From Candidatus Bathyarchaeota archaeon (GTDB lineage Archaea; Thermoproteota; Bathyarchaeia; Bathyarchaeales; Bathyarchaeaceae): a stretch of DNA of 64,000 nt. Below the pieces are notes generated by a model. It was given only the letters and a program-made list of their open reading frames with translations. It did no database searches and was not told where the DNA came from. The stretch covers positions 140,271 through 204,270 of the forward strand of contig JASFHP010000001.1 in NCBI GenBank assembly GCA_050123155.1, written 5' to 3'. Made by a program: the position numbers and the translations under genes. Positions 8,046 to 26,344 of this stretch are shown here, piece by piece; position 1 is the first letter of the stretch; every line of letters starts with the position of its first letter.

Positions 8046-8408
8046 CTACAAGTGTTGGAAATCTGGAAGGTAGCTATTAATCAAACGATCTATGTCCTGT
8101 TGTGATATGTGATTTTCACTGTCAGGGTTATACCGAGCAACACGACTCTTATTATAAAGCGTTTGATACTTAGTTGAAACTGACCTCAAGTGAACTGAAA
8201 CATATCTATTTCTTCCGTGAGCCCCACCATGAACATCTGGATGAATATTTAGACGTGCCAGTCGTGAATCAACGTAATGTAAGCAAGCATAAAATAATAT
8301 AACGACTCTCCAATCATTAAATCCCGTTGTAGGTAAATTGTTATTCAGTAGACTGAGATTATGTTGAGCTTTTCTAATATGTGAAGGTCTGTCTCCCATT
8401 GACGTCAT
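8046..8408 (-). CDS. HEPN-like small protein, last gene of the AT-rich cassette
   Basis: Helical pattern KAQHNLSLL / WRVVILFYACLHYVDSRL. HGRNRYVSVH fits R-x4-6-H. YNKSRVARYNP resembles the Y..aRYP ending of classical HEPN domains. ATGA overlap with the upstream gene. Confidence 0.5.
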   Translation of the reverse strand: MTSMGDRPSHIRKAQHNLSLLNNNLPTTGFNDWRVVILFYACLHYVDSRLARLNIHPDVHGGAHGRNRYVSVHLRSVSTKYQTLYNKSRVARYNPDSENHISQQDIDRLINSYLPDFQHL

Positions 8409-8857
8409 CTCAATTCATTTTCTGGGAAAACTTTGATACTGTTATTGGGAAGTACATTCTGAAGATTCTGTTCATATAGTGGGTAAACCATGAAATCAAG
8501 ATCAAGTTCATTGTGTATACGCATTAATTCACACTGGGCTTCAGCGATTCTTTCCTCAACATTCAAATCATTTTCTCTAATGAATGTCCAAATGTCCACT
8601 AATTCTTCTTTTTCTATATAGTAAACCGCTTCGACTAGGTCAAGTTCATTGATTCTGTCGATATACAAATTTAGTGCAAAAACAAGACCCATTTTTTTTA
8701 TTAAGTTTTTCATGTCCTGTTGATAAACTTCCAAATTTTTTTTCAAAATATAATTCTTTTTCTTTTCTTCCTGTAATTTTAGGTGAGTCAAGCAGACACG
8801 ATCGCATCCCTGATAATCACCAACAGATTTAATAAAATCATAATGTTGTTCAGACAT
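8405..8857 (-). CDS. Hypothetical protein, middle gene of the AT-rich cassette
   Basis: ORF 8405-8911. The start at MSEQHYDF (8857) leaves a 6-nt gap after the upstream gene. No motif recognised, and no GS...D.D nucleotidyltransferase signature. Confidence 0.5.
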   Translation of the reverse strand: MSEQHYDFIKSVGDYQGCDRVCLTHLKLQEEKKKNYILKKNLEVYQQDMKNLIKKMGLVFALNLYIDRINELDLVEAVYYIEKEELVDIWTFIRENDLNVEERIAEAQCELMRIHNELDLDFMVYPLYEQNLQNVLPNNSIKVFPENELR

Positions 8858-9683
8858 TGGAATCCTCCACAAATAGTTTTGAAGATTCAACTCCATATTC
8901 ACAAACATCATTTAAAATGTTTTGAGAAATTTTGATTTTGGCAGAAAATTCTGAAAAGAAGGTGAAAGTATTTTTTCTAAATTCAAAACGGATTCTGTCA
9001 AGATTGGATGGAGAATCCTCAAAAGAAAGCTGAAGACCCGTAACATCAGCCTCACCTAAACGTTTTACAACATCTTTGGATAGCGGAATTTTCGTAGGTA
9101 AACTGAATCCACCTATAAGTTTATGCTTTTTTCTGCTAAATACAAACGTTACACAACCATTAACCACAACAAGTTTCGATTGCTTAATAGACAATATTTG
9201 TAAAAATTTTTTAATGGAAGCGTTTAGTTGAATTTTTTTAGTAAAATTTACAGGGCGCTTTTTGTTTTTTGGTTCACATCTCAAACTGAAGTGTACAATG
9301 CCTTCTTCTTCTGACCTTTTGTATTCTCTGAATTTTTTAACGTTGGCAATAACTTTCTTTCGGAGTGTTTCTATCTTCTTACTCAGCTCTGGAGGAGCTT
9401 CTTTAAAATCCTTTTCAAATTCACTTATTAGTTTCTTTTTTGATGGAACTGAATAAACGCCTAAACGAATGATGTTAGATTTAATTGGGTATTTTTGGAT
9501 AAAATAGATAAACCCCATTTTGTTAATCGGATTTTTTTCAATATTAAAAATATCAAATAATTGGGAGTTAATTTCTTCTAATTTGCTTTGAGATAAAATA
9601 ATACCCGTACACATACACAAACTCGAAAATAACTGCTCCATTTTTGAAGAATCACTCCAAATAAGTATTAGCTTTTCACACAT
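8850..9683 (-). CDS. Hypothetical Lys-rich protein, first gene of the AT-rich cassette
   Basis: 277-aa ORF in very AT-rich DNA. No Walker, nuclease or other motif recognised. Confidence 0.5.
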   Translation of the reverse strand: MCEKLILIWSDSSKMEQLFSSLCMCTGIILSQSKLEEINSQLFDIFNIEKNPINKMGFIYFIQKYPIKSNIIRLGVYSVPSKKKLISEFEKDFKEAPPELSKKIETLRKKVIANVKKFREYKRSEEEGIVHFSLRCEPKNKKRPVNFTKKIQLNASIKKFLQILSIKQSKLVVVNGCVTFVFSRKKHKLIGGFSLPTKIPLSKDVVKRLGEADVTGLQLSFEDSPSNLDRIRFEFRKNTFTFFSEFSAKIKISQNILNDVCEYGVESSKLFVEDSNV

Positions 9684-18632: not shown

Positions 18633-20866
18633 GTTTTTCCACCTCCGTTCCTTTGGATAGGTAACTTAACCGTGAAAATCGAGCCTTCATCTTCTTCACT
18701 TTCTACTTCGATGTTGCCATCATGAAGCTCGATAAATCTCTTACATATCGGCAAACCCACACCCATTCCCTGAGCCTTTGTGGTGAAGAATGGAATGAAG
18801 ATTTTTGGCATGTTTTCTTTTTTTATGCCAGTACCTGTGTCTTGGAATTTAATCTCAATAAAACCGTTTGTTTCTTTGGTTGACACTTTCAGTATTCCTC
18901 GTTTCTCTTTCATTGCCTGTATTCCGTTAACAGCCAAGTTCACGAAAATCTGTCCCATCATATCCTTGTCAGCCTCTATTTTCGGGAGTTCACCTAACTC
19001 TATGATGGTTTCCACGTTTTCTGGTGTTTTGACATGCGAAAACGTCTCTTTAACTAGCGTGTTGATGTCTATCTTCTTGAATAACGGTTCTCTTTTTGAC
19101 GCAAAACTCTGCAGGTCCTTCACTATATTATCAGCATATTCAACTGAACCATGAATAGCCTGGAGTGTTTCCTTGATGTTTTGAGAATTTGGACGTTTTG
19201 ACAATTCAGTGTTGATGTAGTATATTCCGTTTTCTATGGCTTGCAAGGGGTTTCTGAGGTCATGCCCCACCATTGTTGCTGCTTGTCCGATCGCGGCCAA
19301 TCTTTCGGTTTTGAGAAACCGCTCCTGTGACTGCTTCAAAGCTTCAGTCCTTTCCTCCACTAACTCTTCTAATTGCTCAGAATAGCGCCTCAGCTCATTT
19401 TCCATACGTTTGCGTTCGGTGATGTCATTAGTTATAGTCACAAAACCTGTGGGATTACCTGAATGGTCTTTAATTGCACTTGTAGAGAATTCTGCAGGGA
19501 ATTCATAACCTTCTTTATTCACGGCAGCGTATTCTACATTTATTAATGGATCCCCCTTGAGAACGTTCTTCATGCTTTTCTTCACTTTTTGCTGGTCTTT
19601 TTTTGCAATGAATAGTGAACTATTTTTGCCGATTATTTCATCCTTTTTTGAAAACCCAAGAAAATCTAAGGTTGCTTGGTTGCATTCAACTATGTTCCCC
19701 TTTAGGTCGGAAACTGCGATAGCGTCTGGAGACGAATTAAATATGCTTAGGAGTTTTTCTTCATTTTCTTTCAAAGTCTTGGTTCGCTCTTTCACTTTTT
19801 CCTCTAGTTGCTCAGCATATTTCTCAAGTCTCTCTTCCATCATTTTCCTTTCGGTGATGTCGTGGAATACAACTAAATCTGCACTTTTGTCTTCATATTC
19901 AATTTTCTGTGCATTCAAAGCAACATGTAGTGTTCCACCACTTTTTTTGTTCACTTCTATTTCATATGGTTTAACCGTAACTCCCATCATTCTCTTGGCT
20001 AGATTCTGAAGTAGAATCGCTTTGCTTTTCGCTGGGACAATATCTGTTTTTACGAAGTTTTTTCCAAGTAACTCTTCTTTACTGAACCCCGTTAATTCGG
20101 CTGCCTTGTCGTTGATTTCCAAAAAATGACCTTTGTGATCAACAATCACCACAGGATCGGCGATGACATTCACCAGAGATTTAAAGTTATACTTGGCCCT
20201 CGTTAGTTGGTCCCGTGAGATTTCAAGCTCTTGCTTGGTCTTTTCATACTCTTTTTCAAGAGCAAAGAAAGCAGCGGCGTCACTTCCCTCGCTTTCTCTT
20301 GCGGTTACGAAAACGAGAGCTAGGAATATGTGGGCACACGTATAAGCAAAAACGACAAACTCTATTCCTGAATTCACTATGCCCTTAACTTCTGCTAAAG
20401 TGAAGCATATCATGGCAAGCAAAAACATGAGGTCTGGAACCTTTCTTCTACTCCAGATCAAGTAACCTGACGCGACAATGGTGACCGCTGATATAACTGG
20501 GTATAAGAGTGCGGGTTGAGGGCTCACAGGAAGTGGAAGAAGCATCATGACTGCGGATGTAGTTAAGATGAGGAGAAAAATTTTGAATGGTTTCCTGAAA
20601 TCTTTCTGCCTCAAAAGATTGGAGAGAACCGCAATCAAGATAGCTGATATTACTGGCAGAGGACCCCACTCAGCTATTCTACTCTGAATCTGGATGTCTT
20701 CAAATCCGGAAATCATAGCCGGTATACGTATGAAAAAGCTATAAATAAAAACGAGTAGGAACATTAGTTTGCGTTTATCTATATCTCGCTGAATCATGTA
20801 GCTGAAGAACAATGCAAAAAGTAATGAAAGAAAGGATAAGTAGGTTCCCAATAGTGCGGAGTCCAA
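18629..20866 (-). CDS. Membrane sensor histidine kinase with two PAS domains
   Basis: About 6 N-terminal TM segments, two PAS-like modules, H-box HDLRNPL, and the HATPase motifs DTGTGI and GMGVGLPICKRFIELHDG. 4-nt overlap with the receiver gene. Confidence 0.9.
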   Translation of the reverse strand: MDSALLGTYLSFLSLLFALFFSYMIQRDIDKRKLMFLLVFIYSFFIRIPAMISGFEDIQIQSRIAEWGPLPVISAILIAVLSNLLRQKDFRKPFKIFLLILTTSAVMMLLPLPVSPQPALLYPVISAVTIVASGYLIWSRRKVPDLMFLLAMICFTLAEVKGIVNSGIEFVVFAYTCAHIFLALVFVTARESEGSDAAAFFALEKEYEKTKQELEISRDQLTRAKYNFKSLVNVIADPVVIVDHKGHFLEINDKAAELTGFSKEELLGKNFVKTDIVPAKSKAILLQNLAKRMMGVTVKPYEIEVNKKSGGTLHVALNAQKIEYEDKSADLVVFHDITERKMMEERLEKYAEQLEEKVKERTKTLKENEEKLLSIFNSSPDAIAVSDLKGNIVECNQATLDFLGFSKKDEIIGKNSSLFIAKKDQQKVKKSMKNVLKGDPLINVEYAAVNKEGYEFPAEFSTSAIKDHSGNPTGFVTITNDITERKRMENELRRYSEQLEELVEERTEALKQSQERFLKTERLAAIGQAATMVGHDLRNPLQAIENGIYYINTELSKRPNSQNIKETLQAIHGSVEYADNIVKDLQSFASKREPLFKKIDINTLVKETFSHVKTPENVETIIELGELPKIEADKDMMGQIFVNLAVNGIQAMKEKRGILKVSTKETNGFIEIKFQDTGTGIKKENMPKIFIPFFTTKAQGMGVGLPICKRFIELHDGNIEVESEEDEGSIFTVKLPIQRNGGGKT

Positions 20867-20870
20867 TCAT

Positions 20871-21440
20871 TCACTCCTCCCTCAGTTCCCTTATGTAGTC
20901 CAGAAATTCGTAGCCTTTTTTTTCCTCAAATTTTAACCCCAGCCTACGATACAGTTTCTTGAGAATCAGTTTCTTTATCACATGCGCTGCTGAAACCATA
21001 AGCGTCTCTAAAGTAGCAGAAAAGACATCGGGTTTGTCAGCAAGCTCTTCTAACTTCAAACATGCGTGGTTCTCCAAAAACTCATAGATGACCTTGGCGC
21101 CATCTTCTTTGAAAATCTGTTTTAGCGTTTCATCTACAGCTTCAGCAAAGTAATTGTTCAAGTCTTTCCTTTTTTCAACTACGTCAAGTCTGTTAGACAC
21201 TTTGGTTGACTTCCACCGCTCACCCTTCTTGTCTAACAGATGTTTTTTGAGTTTTGCATTTAAATCATATGAAAGTGAAATATGTATTGCTGTTAATAGC
21301 CTATTCGTATTCAGAATCAAAATAAAAAATGCAAAAAGTTCTATCCCTGCTTCAAGCCCCCACTCACAACTGCATATTAATGAACAGAACCCAGAAACAT
21401 GTCTAAACCAGAATTTTAGGAAAAAACAACCCAAAATCAT
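20871..21440 (-). CDS. Hypothetical protein upstream of the kinase (start uncertain)
   Basis: The C-terminal ~110 aa look like a real soluble domain (VIYEFLENH...PDVFSATLETL). The N-terminal ~60 aa are odd and Cys/Phe-rich, and the ATG abuts the tRNA-like repeat. Confidence 0.45.
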   Translation of the reverse strand: MILGCFFLKFWFRHVSGFCSLICSCEWGLEAGIELFAFFILILNTNRLLTAIHISLSYDLNAKLKKHLLDKKGERWKSTKVSNRLDVVEKRKDLNNYFAEAVDETLKQIFKEDGAKVIYEFLENHACLKLEELADKPDVFSATLETLMVSAAHVIKKLILKKLYRRLGLKFEEKKGYEFLDYIRELREE

Positions 21441-21474
21441 TGTTAATTGGTAGTGGGGAGTTGATTTGGACAGC
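21441..21474 (-). repeat. Partial copy of the initiator tRNA-Met 3' end (att-like direct repeat)
   Basis: tgttaattggtagtggggagttgatttggacagc matches 24643-24676 at 30 of 34 positions in the same orientation. It covers 7 nt beyond the tRNA 3' end plus CCA, the acceptor 3' strand and part of the T arm. Confidence 0.8.
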
Positions 21475-21550
21475 TATGTTTGAAATAGTTTTTATTAGAG
21501 CACAATCTATCTTTCATTCCATTAATCGTTAATGAGCGAGATGACCCACT

Positions 21551-23026
21551 GTGAGCGGCGAAAGTGAAGTATTGGTGATTGGGGCTGGTGTGATTGGCTG
21601 TGCTATCGCAAGAGAACTAGCAAAGTTCAAAATTGAAACAGTGCTGTTGGAGAAGGATACCGATGTGGGTTCCGGTGTTAGCAAAGGTAACAGTGGAGTC
21701 CTTCATACTGGTCTCTACTATCCGAAAGGGAGTTTGAAGGCCAAACTATGTGTTGAAGGGCGACTGATGTTTCCACAGTTGGCGAAGCAACTGGATGTAC
21801 CCTACAGACTCTGTGGAAAACATGTGATTGCTAGAACAGAAGAGGAACTCGAAGACTTGGAGGGCCTAAAGGCTGTGGGGGACGGGAATGGAGTTCAGGG
21901 CTTAACCATAATCTCTGGGAAAGAACTGAAAAGGCGAGAACCACACTTGGACGCTCTCTACGCTTTACATTCTCCTGTAGCTGGAATCCTTCCACCCTAT
22001 CTTTTCACCATTGCATTAGCTGAGAATGCCTTAAACAATGGTGTGAAAATTCACGTCAACACCAAAGTATTAGAGATAAAGCAAGTAAACAGCGGTTATG
22101 AAGTAACAACAACTCAGGGAGTCTTCTACGCTGACATCATTGTTAACAGTGCAGGTCTCTACGCAGATAGAATCTCTGCTATGATGGGTTTAGATGATTA
22201 CAAGCTCTATCCATGCCGGGGTGAATATCTTATCCTCGACAAGAACTGCAGTGACTTAATCAGCAGCATGGTTTACCCAGTGCCACCAAAAGTTGCAGGG
22301 GTTCTGGGTGTTCATCTCACGCCCACAATAGATGGAAACATATTGATTGGACCTAGCGCTGAATTCATCAACAAGCGAGAAGACTCGAGAACAACCAAAG
22401 AAAAGATTCGGCAACTAATGGAGGGGGCGAAGAGTTTACTTCCATCCATCCCCTTAAACGAGATTATATACGGTTTCTCTGCAGTGAGATCAAAAATTAC
22501 TCCACCAGAAGAGAAGGAGTCTCGTGACTTCATCATCCGAGAAGATCTTGAAAACTTCATCAACTTGATTGGAATGGAATCGCCTGGTCTCACAGCCTCT
22601 CCAGCCATCGCAAAATTGGTCGTTCAAATGATTAAAAGAAAAATGGATGCGGAAGAAAAATCAGACTTTAATCCTATCCGAAAACGAACAGCCTCTTTTA
22701 GTGAAGCATCAAGAACAGAGCAAGCTTCTTTGATTGAATCTGACCCAGCATACGGCGAAATTGTATGTAGGTGTGAACATGTATCCAAACGGGAAGTCCT
22801 AGACGCATTGGACAACCCCTTTTCAGCAAAAACAACATCCGCCGTAAAATACCGCACCAGAGCCGGTATGGGTCGATGCCACGGAGGTTTCTGCTTACCC
22901 AAAATTGTGGAAATCCTAAAAGAAGAATATGGGGTACCCCCTGAAGAAATTAATTTGAAAAATTTGGATTCGCCTCTGTTTGTCGGAACAACCAAAGGTC
23001 TAAGGGAGAAAGAGAAAAGTGAATGA
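21551..23026 (+). CDS. FAD-dependent oxidoreductase (GlpA / glycerol-3-phosphate dehydrogenase-like) with BFD-like [2Fe-2S] domain
   Basis: GAGVIGCAIARELA dinucleotide fold. C-terminal CRCEHVSKREV...GMGRCHGGFC. GTG start. Confidence 0.85.
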   Translation: MSGESEVLVIGAGVIGCAIARELAKFKIETVLLEKDTDVGSGVSKGNSGVLHTGLYYPKGSLKAKLCVEGRLMFPQLAKQLDVPYRLCGKHVIARTEEELEDLEGLKAVGDGNGVQGLTIISGKELKRREPHLDALYALHSPVAGILPPYLFTIALAENALNNGVKIHVNTKVLEIKQVNSGYEVTTTQGVFYADIIVNSAGLYADRISAMMGLDDYKLYPCRGEYLILDKNCSDLISSMVYPVPPKVAGVLGVHLTPTIDGNILIGPSAEFINKREDSRTTKEKIRQLMEGAKSLLPSIPLNEIIYGFSAVRSKITPPEEKESRDFIIREDLENFINLIGMESPGLTASPAIAKLVVQMIKRKMDAEEKSDFNPIRKRTASFSEASRTEQASLIESDPAYGEIVCRCEHVSKREVLDALDNPFSAKTTSAVKYRTRAGMGRCHGGFCLPKIVEILKEEYGVPPEEINLKNLDSPLFVGTTKGLREKEKSE

Positions 23027-24272
23027 GTTCACATCTCGAGATGTTGATCTGGTTGTAATTGGCGGTGGTCCAGCAGGACTCGCCGCAGCCATCAGCGCAA
23101 AGAAAAACGGCGTTCAAGATTTGGTCATTGTAGAAAGGAACAATTGGCTCGGCGGCATCCTCCCACAGTGTATACACGATGGCTTTGGTCTTGAACTTTT
23201 TCAAGAACCATTAACTGGTCCAGAATACGCTCAACGCTATATCGATGAAATGAAGGAACTAGAAATCCCGTATATGCTTAATAGCATGGTGCTCGAGGTC
23301 ACACCTGAAAAAGAGGTGTTTGTAGCTAGCCCGAAGGGTCTTTTCTGTTTCCACACCAAAGCGATAATCCTCGCCATGGGTTGCCGTGAACGGACACGAG
23401 GGCAGATTTGCATTCCAGGGACTCGACCTGCTGGGGTGTATACTGCAGGGGTCGCTCAGAACCTCATTAACCTGAAGAATGTGATGGTTGGCAAAGACGT
23501 AGTTATTCTCGGTTCGGGGGACATAGGTCTGATTATGGCTCGTCGACTTACTCTTGAAGGTGCTAAAGTTCACGCCGTAGTTGAGATTCTTCCTCACAAC
23601 AGTGGTCTACCACGAAACATTCAGCAGTGCCTAATTGACTATGAAATTCCTCTCCTTCTCTCTCACACAGTCACTGAAATCCATGGGCGGAATCGAGTTG
23701 AATCAGTCACCATCTCTCCAGTAAACGAGAATTTTGAGCCAATCAAAGGAGAAGAAAAGAGAGTTACCTGTGATACTCTCCTCCTCTCTATAGGCCTAAT
23801 CCCAGAAAACGAACTGTCAAAAACTTGCGGTGTTGAACTCAGCTCAGTTACTGGGGGAGCCATCGTCAATGAAAATCTTGAAACATCTGTGCCCGGAGTT
23901 TTTGCGTGTGGAAACGCTCTCCATGTTCACGATGTCGTGGACTTCGTTACTCTCGAAGCGGAAAGAGCAGGTAAAAGCGCGGCAGAATATATCCTCGGAA
24001 AGCAACGAAGGGTGGAAAGAATCTGTGTAGAGGCAGGTAAAGGAATACGATATGTTTTACCCCACAACATCCCCCGTGACACTGACCTTGAACTGTCGAT
24101 TCGTGTGACATGTCCTGGAGAAGGTGTATCTATTGGATTCTTTGATGGAGAAAAGCTGGTGAAGACTAAAAAGTTTGTGAAGGTTCATCCAGCTGAAATG
24201 ATAAAGATAAAACTCAAGGGAAGCGAAACCCGAACTGTTAACTCATTGAAGGCTGAGGTTTTACAGAAATGA
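23019..24272 (+). CDS. FAD/NAD(P)-binding pyridine nucleotide-disulfide oxidoreductase family protein
   Basis: VVIGGGPAGLAAA and ILGSGDIGLIMA Rossmann motifs. Overlaps the upstream gene by 8 nt. Confidence 0.85.
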   Translation: MNEFTSRDVDLVVIGGGPAGLAAAISAKKNGVQDLVIVERNNWLGGILPQCIHDGFGLELFQEPLTGPEYAQRYIDEMKELEIPYMLNSMVLEVTPEKEVFVASPKGLFCFHTKAIILAMGCRERTRGQICIPGTRPAGVYTAGVAQNLINLKNVMVGKDVVILGSGDIGLIMARRLTLEGAKVHAVVEILPHNSGLPRNIQQCLIDYEIPLLLSHTVTEIHGRNRVESVTISPVNENFEPIKGEEKRVTCDTLLLSIGLIPENELSKTCGVELSSVTGGAIVNENLETSVPGVFACGNALHVHDVVDFVTLEAERAGKSAAEYILGKQRRVERICVEAGKGIRYVLPHNIPRDTDLELSIRVTCPGEGVSIGFFDGEKLVKTKKFVKVHPAEMIKIKLKGSETRTVNSLKAEVLQK

Positions 24273-24634
24273 AGAAAGAGATGATATGTATCGGCTGTCC
24301 TCTGGGTTGTTTCCTCAGTGTTGAATACGTCGGAAAAACAATACAAAGCGTTAATGGAAATAGGTGCAAAGTCGGATTAGAGTATGCTGAAAAAGAGTGT
24401 TTCAATCCTGAGAGAACACTGACAACCACGGTGAGGGTTAAAAACGGTCATCTTCCTCTAGTGAGCGTGAGAACCAACAAGCCAATACCCAAAAACAGAA
24501 TCTTCGACGCTATGACCTTACTGGCAAAAGTTGAGGTAGAAGCGCCAGTCAGAATTGGAGAGGAAATCGTTCAAAACATCTTCGATACAAACGTGAGTAT
24601 AGTAGCTACAAAGAACATCTTGAAAAAAGACTAA
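24269..24634 (+). CDS. DUF1667-type small Cys protein (third subunit of the oxidoreductase cluster)
   Basis: MICIGCPLGC start is typical of DUF1667. ATGA overlap with the upstream gene. Confidence 0.8.
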   Translation: MKKEMICIGCPLGCFLSVEYVGKTIQSVNGNRCKVGLEYAEKECFNPERTLTTTVRVKNGHLPLVSVRTNKPIPKNRIFDAMTLLAKVEVEAPVRIGEEIVQNIFDTNVSIVATKNILKKD

Positions 24635-24649
24635 GAAGCTAGTGTTAGT

Positions 24650-24727
24650 TGGTAGCGGGGAGTTGATTTGAACAACCGATCTCTGGGTTATGAGCCCAGC
24701 GGGTTCACCTGGCTACCCCACCCCGCT
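24650..24727 (-). tRNA. Initiator tRNA-Met (CAU), CCA encoded
   Basis: Cloverleaf by hand: AGCGGGG/CCCCGCT acceptor with A1:U72, anticodon loop CTCATAA, three G:C pairs closing the anticodon stem (GGG/CCC), T loop TTCAAAT. Confidence 0.9.
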
Positions 24728-24909
24728 ACGTTCGGGCTAAAAACTTGTTGCCAGAATCATTTCTAGCCCGATGTGATACCATTGTTGCACTCTTTCTTAA
24801 GCTTTGTTGCGTAGGTTTGCCTCAACCCTGCCTATAACGCCGTTATAGATAAATATGGGGGAAACTATTTTAGTTATATGTGATTTTTTGGTCTGCTGGA
24901 GGTTCACAA

Positions 24910-25152
24910 TTGGGTGACAAGATTAAGCCTAACCGCGAACTTGACTGCGTGGGGCTTTACTGCCCTGAACCCGTGTTTAGAACCCGCCAAGAGATCGACA
25001 AACTGGTTGTAGGCGAAATTCTCGAGGTAGTTGCGGACGATCCGGCTGCTGAGGAGGACATACCGCGTCTGGTTAAGAGGCTTGAGCAGCAACTCGTCGA
25101 AATGCGCAAAGAAAACGACCAGTTTCATTTTGTCATCAAAAAAACAAAATAG
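24910..25152 (+). CDS. TusA/SirA-like sulfurtransferase
   Basis: LDCVGLYCPEPV (CPxP active-site motif). TTG at 24910 preceded by GGAGGT. The track's GTG at 24880 is an alternative start. Confidence 0.8.
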   Translation: MGDKIKPNRELDCVGLYCPEPVFRTRQEIDKLVVGEILEVVADDPAAEEDIPRLVKRLEQQLVEMRKENDQFHFVIKKTK

Positions 25153-25183
25153 GATGTAATTTTAGCAGTTGCGAAAAGTGTAT

Positions 25184-26344
25184 ATGGATCACGGGGCTGG
25201 GATGCTGTTAGACTCCAGGGTATTCGAAGCCATGAAGCCGTATTTCTTGGAGAACTATGGGAATCCTTCATCGTCCCATTCTTTTGGAAACGTCGGCAGA
25301 AACGCTATGGAATCTGCAAGAGAGAAGGTTGCTCAGTTGGTGGGTGCGGAGAAGCCTCAAGGGGTCATCTTCACTTCAGGGGGCACAGAATCTAACAATC
25401 TGGCGATAAAAGGGGCTGCTTACCGTAACAGGAAAAAAGGAAATCACATCATAACCACCGCCATCGAGCACATATCCGTTATAAATATCTGCAAGTTTCT
25501 TCAGAAGCAGGGCTTTGAAGTAACTTACGTTCCCGTGGACAAACAGGGAATGGTTGACCTCGAAAAACTTGAAGAGGCAATAAACGACAAAACGATCCTC
25601 ATCTCAGTTATGTATGCGAATGGTGAGATTGGAACAGTTCAGCCGATAAGGGAAATCGGGAAGTTAGCCCAAGAGCGCAGCATCGGTTTTCATGTGGACG
25701 CCGTGGCTGCGGCGGGGCAGGTTCCAATCAACGTTAAAGACGAAAACATTGACCTCTTATCCATCTCTTCCAACGACATGTATGGACCCAAGGGTGTAGG
25801 CGCTCTTTACATAAAGTCGGGAACAAAAATTCAGCCAATCAATCAGGGTGGGGGACAAGAGAGAGGGTTACGGTCAGGCACAGAAAACGTTCCGGGCATA
25901 GTTGGCATGGGCAAAGCAGCTGAGGTCGCAAAGATGGAGATGGAGGCTGAGGGCAAACGGTTGACAGCCTTAAGGGACAAGCTGATTAAGGGCGTTCTGG
26001 ATAAGATTGATTATTCTTTCTTGAATGGTCACCCAACCAAGAGGCTTCCAGACAACGCAAATCTTAGGTTCAGTTATATAGAAGGTGAGTCTCTCATTTT
26101 AGGTCTGGACATGTATGGAGTTCAGGTGTCCTCGGGCTCTGCGTGCACTTCCAAAACCTTGGAGCCCTCTCATGTGCTGTTGGCTATAGGCCTAGCTCAC
26201 GAAGAGGCTCATGGGTCACTGGTCTTCACCTTGGGCAAACAGAACTCTGAAGAGGATGTGGATTACGTGCTAGAAGTGTTACCGGATGTGGTGAAACGAT
26301 TGCGGGCTCTTTCGCCCTTAACCCCTAAGGAAATGGTGAGGTGA
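25184..26344 (+). CDS. iscS: IscS/NifS-family cysteine desulfurase homolog lacking the PLP lysine
   Basis: Class V aminotransferase blocks and the active-site Cys loop SSGSACTS are present. The SGHK(I)YGPKG position reads SSNDMYGPKG. Confidence 0.85.
   Translation: MDHGAGMLLDSRVFEAMKPYFLENYGNPSSSHSFGNVGRNAMESAREKVAQLVGAEKPQGVIFTSGGTESNNLAIKGAAYRNRKKGNHIITTAIEHISVINICKFLQKQGFEVTYVPVDKQGMVDLEKLEEAINDKTILISVMYANGEIGTVQPIREIGKLAQERSIGFHVDAVAAAGQVPINVKDENIDLLSISSNDMYGPKGVGALYIKSGTKIQPINQGGGQERGLRSGTENVPGIVGMGKAAEVAKMEMEAEGKRLTALRDKLIKGVLDKIDYSFLNGHPTKRLPDNANLRFSYIEGESLILGLDMYGVQVSSGSACTSKTLEPSHVLLAIGLAHEEAHGSLVFTLGKQNSEEDVDYVLEVLPDVVKRLRALSPLTPKEMVR

Follow-up and report, generated by a model that had tools for sequence, protein, structure and literature searches.

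A three-gene flavoenzyme operon beside an archaeal initiator tRNA gene is probably an integrase-less cassette inserted at the tRNA 3′ end

The window analysed in this study is a 64,000-nucleotide stretch of contig JASFHP010000001.1 from Candidatus Bathyarchaeota archaeon (assembly GCA_050123155.1), whose genome, referred to here as G000, is a metagenome-assembled genome (MAG) of 1.98 Mb in 27 contigs. In it, a three-gene flavoenzyme operon is enclosed by a direct repeat, and the second repeat copy belongs to an intact initiator tRNA gene (tRNAi-Met). A first-pass annotation, made from the letters of the window, had read this arrangement as tRNA-targeted integration of the operon as cargo. We compared the locus across 25 species of the Candidatus Bathyarchaeum genus (class Bathyarchaeia), with a species tree built on RpoB and SMC, and, outside the genus, across other genera of its family and eight distant Bathyarchaeia genomes, for which identities were measured against G000. 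The features of the locus are as follows.

20871–21440, minus strand: orf189, conserved but not part of the cassette, which it adjoins as the final gene on the side that carries SMC, DUF2096, a response regulator (RR) and a histidine kinase (HK); homology in relatives
21380–21440, minus strand: original chromosomal 3′ flank of the tRNA, a T-rich trailer region on this strand; orthology with G018, G004, G023 and G007
21441–21474, minus strand: partial tRNAi-Met 3′ end, composed of the trailer (21441–21447) and a 27-nt tRNA end (21448–21474); sequence match, with an orthologous copy in G007
21477–21504, plus strand: conserved promoter-like block TTTGAAATAGTTTTTATTAGAGCAC at the left cassette boundary, kept 5′ of GlpA in G005, G006, G007, G010, G016, G024 and G014
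21551–23026, plus strand: FAD-dependent oxidoreductase of the DAO fold with a C-terminal BFD-like [2Fe-2S] domain; PF01266 (3e-73), PF04324
23019–24272, plus strand: pyridine-nucleotide-disulfide oxidoreductase partner (FAD/NAD); PF07992 (5e-32)
24269–24634, plus strand: DUF1667 protein, the final cassette gene; PF07892 (3e-32)
24635–24649, plus strand: right cassette end, including the repeat trailer TGTTAGT (24643–24649); conserved letters 3′ of the DUF1667 stop
24650–24727, minus strand: intact initiator tRNA-Met(CAU), the putative attachment target, of which 24650–24676 forms part of the right repeat; ARAGORN, Rfam

Based on Pfam, only three genes lie between the repeats, namely a DAO/BFD flavoprotein, a Pyr_redox_2 partner and DUF1667. 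The absence of an integrase from this segment, which the first-pass annotation had stated together with the same three genes, was borne out by Pfam and by a scan with PF00589. The first gene, called GlpA below, appears from its sequence to be of the glycerol-3-phosphate or L-2-hydroxyglutarate oxidase type, an assignment that can be asserted only to the level of the DAO superfamily and the BFD domain. Its scores are below the NCBIfam cut-offs for both glycerol3P_ox_II (270.8 bits versus 460) and LhgO (236.1 versus 299), and the closest solved structures are 3dme and 4x9m (GlpO).

The two repeat copies, TGTTAATTGGTAGTGGGGAGTTGATTTGGACAGC at 21441–21474 and TGTTAGTTGGTAGCGGGGAGTTGATTTGAACAAC at 24643–24676, form a direct repeat in which 30 of 34 positions agree, with a spacing of 3,202 bp. 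The right copy consists of the final 27 nt of the tRNA-Met and a 7-nt 3′ trailer; sequence comparison, ARAGORN and Rfam all agree with the earlier description of this pair. With up to 3 mismatches allowed, the 27-nt core occurs twice in the window and in none of 100 shuffles, which excludes a chance match. A search of the whole 1.98-Mb genome with the 34-mer, tolerating as many as 8 mismatches, finds these two sites only and thus not many unrelated ones. The tRNA-Met(CAU) is encoded on the minus strand at 24650–24727 with its CCA included (ARAGORN and Rfam; Rfam tRNA score 62.9 bits), and Rfam gives no other match over 20500–25500. An A1:U72 pair and three G:C pairs in the anticodon stem are hallmarks of archaeal initiator tRNAs. 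Both are read in this sequence (G29–31:C39–41, that is GGG:CCC) along with the CAU anticodon, which identifies it at the sequence level as an archaeal initiator tRNA-Met. Moreover, the 7-nt trailer (TGTTAGT or TGTTAAT) adjoins the tRNA or its copies beside many unrelated neighbours and is therefore part of a shared attachment (att) core, which reads TGTTAGT followed by TGGTAGCGGGGAG at this locus. This explains why the repeat in the window reaches beyond the tRNA.

It is extremely improbable that the arrangement is a metagenome-assembly chimera formed at a short repeat, or a chance match. The genome is indeed a 27-contig MAG, but a repeat of 30/34 is too short and too imperfect to fool an assembler, the same order of partial copy, cassette and further scar was assembled independently in G007, and the shuffles gave zero matches. 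Two kinds of element were also considered and rejected. A casposon, or a transposon with target-site duplication, was set aside because the ends share no inverted repeat and no casposase or transposase gene is present; known target-site duplications measure 14–15 bp, far below 34 nt. An SSV-type split integrase was set aside because the six-frame PF00589 scan detected no int(N) or int(C) fragments at the ends.

The cassette is a discrete unit whose ends are fixed across the genus. On the left, similarity among cassette-bearing genomes starts at 21477, two bases past the partial tRNA copy. On the right, this similarity does not extend beyond the region just 3′ of the DUF1667 stop, and (G)TGTTAGT followed by TGGTAG-like letters stands there in nearly every cassette, including those of the distant genomes.

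The closest species, G018 (SMC 93%, RpoB 96%), provides the corresponding empty site. In the window, Pfam identifies SMC, DUF2096, the response regulator and a PAS histidine kinase, followed by orf189, on the left side, and TusA and a NifS/IscS-type cysteine desulfurase (CysDes) on the right side. The order in G018 is SMC, DUF2096, RR, HK, orf189, 5 nt, tRNAi-Met, TusA and CysDes, which puts the kinase operon immediately next to the tRNA, without the inter-repeat DNA, as the first-pass annotation had suggested looking for. The alignment of the left flank ends at 21472 and that of the right flank begins at 24645, with a 30-nt overlap on the G018 side and ~92% identity across the flanks. This overlap corresponds to the repeat, so what G018 lacks relative to the window is precisely the 3,202 bp of inter-repeat DNA. 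No GlpA homologue was found anywhere in G018, and the junction taken alone is compatible with loss as well as with primary absence.

Further information came from the DNA to the left of the partial copy. These 60 nt are orthologous to the sequence that adjoins the intact tRNA in G018, and they are weakly but significantly similar to the same flank in G004 of the other major clade (score 33 versus a shuffle maximum of 26). Partial copies in G023 and G007 are likewise bordered by an orthologue of this left flank. Since the flank adjoins the intact tRNA in G018 and G004, the partial copy in the window represents the old tRNA end on its old flank, which is the geometry expected after integration. 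Accordingly, the left copy at 21441–21474 is a displaced and decaying old tRNA end (an attR-type scar) with 3 changes in its tRNA part.

The same scar is present in G007 (GlpA 92%), where an orthologous partial copy, TGGTAGCGGG-AGTTGATTTGAACAA, adjoins the same conserved block 5′ of GlpA. A second and more decayed tRNA copy lies beside orf189 in this genome together with what is left of an arm from another element, a third tRNA copy is located directly 3′ of DUF1667, and a 5.7-kb islet with ABC-transporter and ArsR genes is stacked between the cassette and the tRNA. Relative to the tRNA, over 27 positions, the copy in the window carries 3 changes and the G007 copy carries 2 others. The intergenic identity of G000 and G007 (~84%) predicts about two changes per lineage. 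The observed changes match this prediction; therefore, the copy was probably perfect around the G000/G007 split, which suggests that its formation or latest renewal dates to shortly before the two species diverged and not to the base of the genus. Similarly, identity between G000 and G007 is 92.7% for the cassette and 91.9% for the adjacent core DNA. As the cassette diverged like its flanks, it has been resident since before the split, and the insertion is not recent but older than the G000/G007 divergence.

Within the genus, the operon occurs in 12 of the 25 species and, where the contig is readable, occupies the interval from the SMC side to the tRNAi-Met 3′ side. Its presence requires at least 7 and around 8 changes on the species tree, not fewer than with shuffled labels. 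The slot is hypervariable: other genomes carry unrelated DNA there, and in G005, G016, G023, G007 and G017 it is bounded by partial tRNAi-Met copies, with identity ending after 14, 20 or 22 nt. As judged by Pfam on the open reading frames (ORFs) of the G005, G007 and G017 islets, this cargo includes Kelch-repeat secreted proteins, an IS5-type transposase, an ABC transporter and ArsR. SMC rejects G000 and G007 as sisters (p 0.002), so the two cassette bearers of this subclade are separated by the cassette-free G023 and G018. Furthermore, the cassette of G019 was laterally replaced. It groups with those of G013 and G024, and all three share an extra upstream gene. In approximately unbiased (AU) tests, the cassette data reject the species-tree position of G019 (p-AU 1e-54), while RpoB and SMC reject its cassette-tree position (p 9e-6 and 1e-4).

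These distributions bear on the alternative that the operon is an ancestral resident, with the left copy being a relic of tRNA duplication or the scar of another element and with G018 having deleted the operon. The shared slot in 12 of 25 species, the mostly parallel divergence of operon and core, and the lack of a left copy in most cassette-bearing species all fit such a history. However, the left copy lies within 2 nt of the conserved cassette end in both G000 and G007, and the flank–tRNA junction is common to G018 and G004. Together with the distant genomes described below, these points make an ancestral resident very unlikely.

Several side observations concern the slot and its contents. 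An extra gene stands directly 5′ of GlpA in G013 (locus L024, ~8070–9050) as well as in G024, G019 and locus L053; its N-terminus resembles lactate/malate dehydrogenase by eye. This gene is confined to genomes whose cassettes cluster, and G006 retains only its ribosome-binding remnant. About 6.5 kb in the tRNAi-Met slot of G006 (L033, 5867–12404) and G009 (L037, 5747–12608) carries what appear by eye to be formylmethanofuran-dehydrogenase-type subunits and MobA/FdhD-like genes. In G005, G023, G007 and G016, the first 14 nt of the tRNA end are followed by a shared non-tRNA arm, AGCTTTACA(A/T)AACCGTTTGAACCACCGGTT, with a small hairpin inside (L040, 8136–8200; L029, 10602–10660; L023, in reverse, near orf189; L038, after 11330), and this arm probably represents the attP side of a single element family. 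In G014, an inverted resemblance over 13 nt was considered as a left copy and rejected as too weak. G022 has two full tRNAi-Met copies on contigs C32 and C25 (L031 and L032) with an equal 50-nt upstream region, and both contigs end near the tRNA; this is a genuine duplication on both sides of an islet, or else the assembly was broken by strain heterogeneity. In the complete chromosome of G024 (L044), GlpA is intact, the partner gene is matched over its first 64 residues only, and no tRNAi-Met match is seen; the stretch may be truncated.

To place the cassette beyond the genus, we set the identities of GlpA to G000 against those of RpoB. Within the genus, the values are 88–96% for RpoB and 78–92% for GlpA. 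In other genera of the same family, RpoB is 85–86% identical, and GlpA is 68% and 41% identical; in the remaining 17 genera of this family, no GlpA was found at E ≤ 1e-100. In the eight distant Bathyarchaeia genomes, RpoB is only 75–76% identical, whereas GlpA reaches 79–86%. GlpA is thus closer than RpoB across distant lineages, and lateral transfer of the cassette is therefore required.

In two of the distant genomes, the cassette is associated with other tRNA genes. In G043, a partial copy of the tRNA-Cys(GCA) 3′ end (21/24) lies ~265 nt upstream of GlpA, and the intact tRNA-Cys lies ~1 kb beyond DUF1667 in the same orientation. In G041, two 3′-end copies of another tRNA bracket the cassette and are followed by two further units and then by the intact, intron-containing tRNA. 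ARAGORN misses this tRNA unless introns are permitted, and by eye the anticodon arm shows CCU (Arg-like). The G041 array carries an AbiV-HEPN gene among others, and a Pfam search of its ORFs found no integrase. The distant cassettes also retain a GTTAGT-TGG(TAG) vestige behind DUF1667, which suggests an earlier stay at a tRNAi-Met gene. The occurrence of repeat-bracketed cassettes at tRNA-Cys and at another tRNA, and a cassette similarity across lineages with RpoB at 75% that needs lateral transfer, both speak against an ancestral resident. Collectively, the proposal that the operon was integrated as cargo at a tRNA is supported by the empty site, by the cassette at other tRNAs and by the phylogeny of the cargo relative to the core genes (patchy presence, the incongruent G019 in the AU tests and the contrast between GlpA and RpoB).

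Two details of these arrays were seen in passing. At locus L052, the partial tRNA-Cys copy has TGG (CCA) before the discriminator and the intact gene has ATG there (5736 versus 10059); the partial copy may come from an element-borne version or another allele. The distant arrays also contain another conserved arm, ...AAGTGGAGAT....

Taken together, the 3.2-kb segment is likely to be an integrase-less, laterally mobile cassette that was inserted into the initiator tRNA 3′ end through att recombination. Such a cassette would comprise a promoter block of its own, the genes for the three flavoenzymes and, at the end, a short tail with the att site. The att site on the incoming cassette, presumably a circular intermediate, would have recombined with the tRNA 3′ end; this insertion would have rebuilt the intact tRNA at 24650–24727 and moved the old end, with its chromosomal flank, 3.2 kb away to 21441–21474. 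The two repeats would also permit clean loss of the cassette, and for any single species we infer the direction of the event. Catalysis would be attributable to a tyrosine-type integrase, either supplied in trans by another element or since lost.

A number of observations weigh against this interpretation. The cassette is a long-term resident in the lineage of the window, and G013 shows 85% identity throughout, in cassette and flanks alike. The cassette tree largely follows the species tree within the genus, G019 being the one clear exception, and the groupings for the AU tests were chosen once the trees had been seen. The left copy is not recognisable in G013, G014, G006, G005, G010 and G016. 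In addition, the six-frame PF00589 scan, which was run on the own genome, on five relatives and then on all 25 genus genomes, found no recombinase in the slot of the window or of any genus genome; this negative covers PF00589, and serine recombinases had no search of their own. Exact scans of IMG/VR with three att-core patterns returned no match and no integrase-bearing element.

The main rival explanation is insertion by homologous (Campbell-type) recombination, in which circular or linear DNA would recombine over the short homology of the tRNA end, with loss by recombination or slippage between the 27–34-bp repeats. A slot free of integrase in all 25 genomes and the lack of an integrase with this att site in viral contigs are consistent with it, and the G019 replacement could be an exchange through the flanking core genes. 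In contrast, the identity blocks are just 14–27 nt long, and their sharp, element-specific break points and conserved non-tRNA arms are typical of attP/attB sites. The cassette is also found at three different tRNAs without common flanking homology. Insertion by homologous recombination is therefore unlikely, although it remains a more serious candidate than an ancestral resident, and att recombination is retained as the preferred explanation.

Regarding the enzyme, the first-pass annotation had offered an integrase later lost or a mobilisation in trans. Its statement that the segment itself encodes none holds, while no integrase that targets tRNAi-Met was found anywhere, the 25 genus genomes having been searched at tRNAi-Met. 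The PF00589 match nearest to the slot is in G011, ~9 kb off and beyond core genes, and the islet ORFs of G005, G007, G017 and G041 contain no integrase by Pfam. With an integrase for tRNAi-Met found neither in the slot nor elsewhere, loss and action in trans are indistinguishable.

Other tRNA genes of G000 show related features. Downstream of tRNA-Pro(GGG) are three partial 3′-end copies with 0, 3 and 1 mismatches in 22 nt (C13:12458–17616), and tRNA-Val(CAC) has one partial 3′-end copy (C9:44718–46446); by sequence, these partial ends point to further stacked islets in G000. A 197-aa tyrosine-recombinase frame (PF00589, 72 bits) at C6:101741–102448 ends ~200 nt from the tRNA-Leu(UAG) 3′ end, near the contig end, and may be an integrase or a fragment of one from an integrated element.

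Outside the cassette, orf189 has no Pfam or NCBIfam match. Relatives align only from approximately residue 35–90 onwards, and in G018 the N-terminal extension is interrupted by stops whichever of the three frames is read. The annotated start of orf189 is probably mis-set, with the true start further downstream; a conserved TTTAAAT/CATATG block at ~21250–21300 resembles the real promoter and start region.

The feature in the window is an att-flanked, integrase-less islet at a tRNA gene, and hence of a kind that is already known (CIME-like or tycheposon-like). In archaeal elements of the SSV and pNOB8 types, the att site overlaps the 3′ part of a tRNA gene and direct repeats stand at both ends. 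The cassette shares this tRNA 3′-end att site with terminal direct repeats; unlike these elements, the insert measures only 3.2 kb and carries no integrase and no viral or plasmid genes. cis-Mobilizable elements (CIMEs) and att-site accretion are described for the ICESt1/ICESt3 family of Streptococcus thermophilus (PMC5704250). As with CIMEs, the cassette is flanked by att sites and encodes no recombinase, its mobilisation is presumed to proceed via an integrase in trans, and G007, G005 and G041 carry several such units stacked in tandem at a single attachment site. In contrast to CIMEs, the cassette resides in an archaeon and is targeted to a tRNA 3′ end, its mobilisation is putative, and no element with a cognate integrase was found. 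Tycheposons and their degenerate remnants were reported from genomic islands of Prochlorococcus (bioRxiv 10.1101/2020.12.28.424599). They too are targeted to tRNAs, with partial tRNAs on both sides and metabolic cargo; newcomers likewise displace older units from the tRNA, and remnants that lack an integrase are dispersed through the islands. However, tycheposons are defined by a tyrosine recombinase and a replication (primase/helicase) module, whereas the element in the window has neither and consists of three metabolic genes only; its host is archaeal, and one cargo cassette is found at three different tRNAs. Finally, in the ssrA-specific islands of Dehalococcoides with the vcrABC operon (PMC3146451), a catabolic operon is also site-specific cargo at a small-RNA gene, bounded by direct repeats. 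These islands differ in being bacterial, in targeting tmRNA and in having reported mobilisation genes, which are absent from the element in the window.

Bathyarchaeia are abundant uncultured sediment archaea whose metabolic gene exchange is little understood. The locus offers a clean and dated example of a complete redox operon, together with its promoter, as a movable unit that is gained, lost and swapped at one tRNA without an accompanying recombinase. More broadly, and only tentatively, Bathyarchaeia might hold a pool of integrase-less cassettes, both metabolic and defensive, that are exchanged among tRNA 3′ ends (initiator Met, Cys and the intron-containing Arg-like tRNA) by one or a few trans-acting recombinases. 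The locus supplies defined att sequences with which such a possible trans-acting cassette system can be sought. If true, such a pool would amount to a tRNA-anchored, integron-like cassette system in archaea, of which the flavoenzyme operon would be a traceable member.

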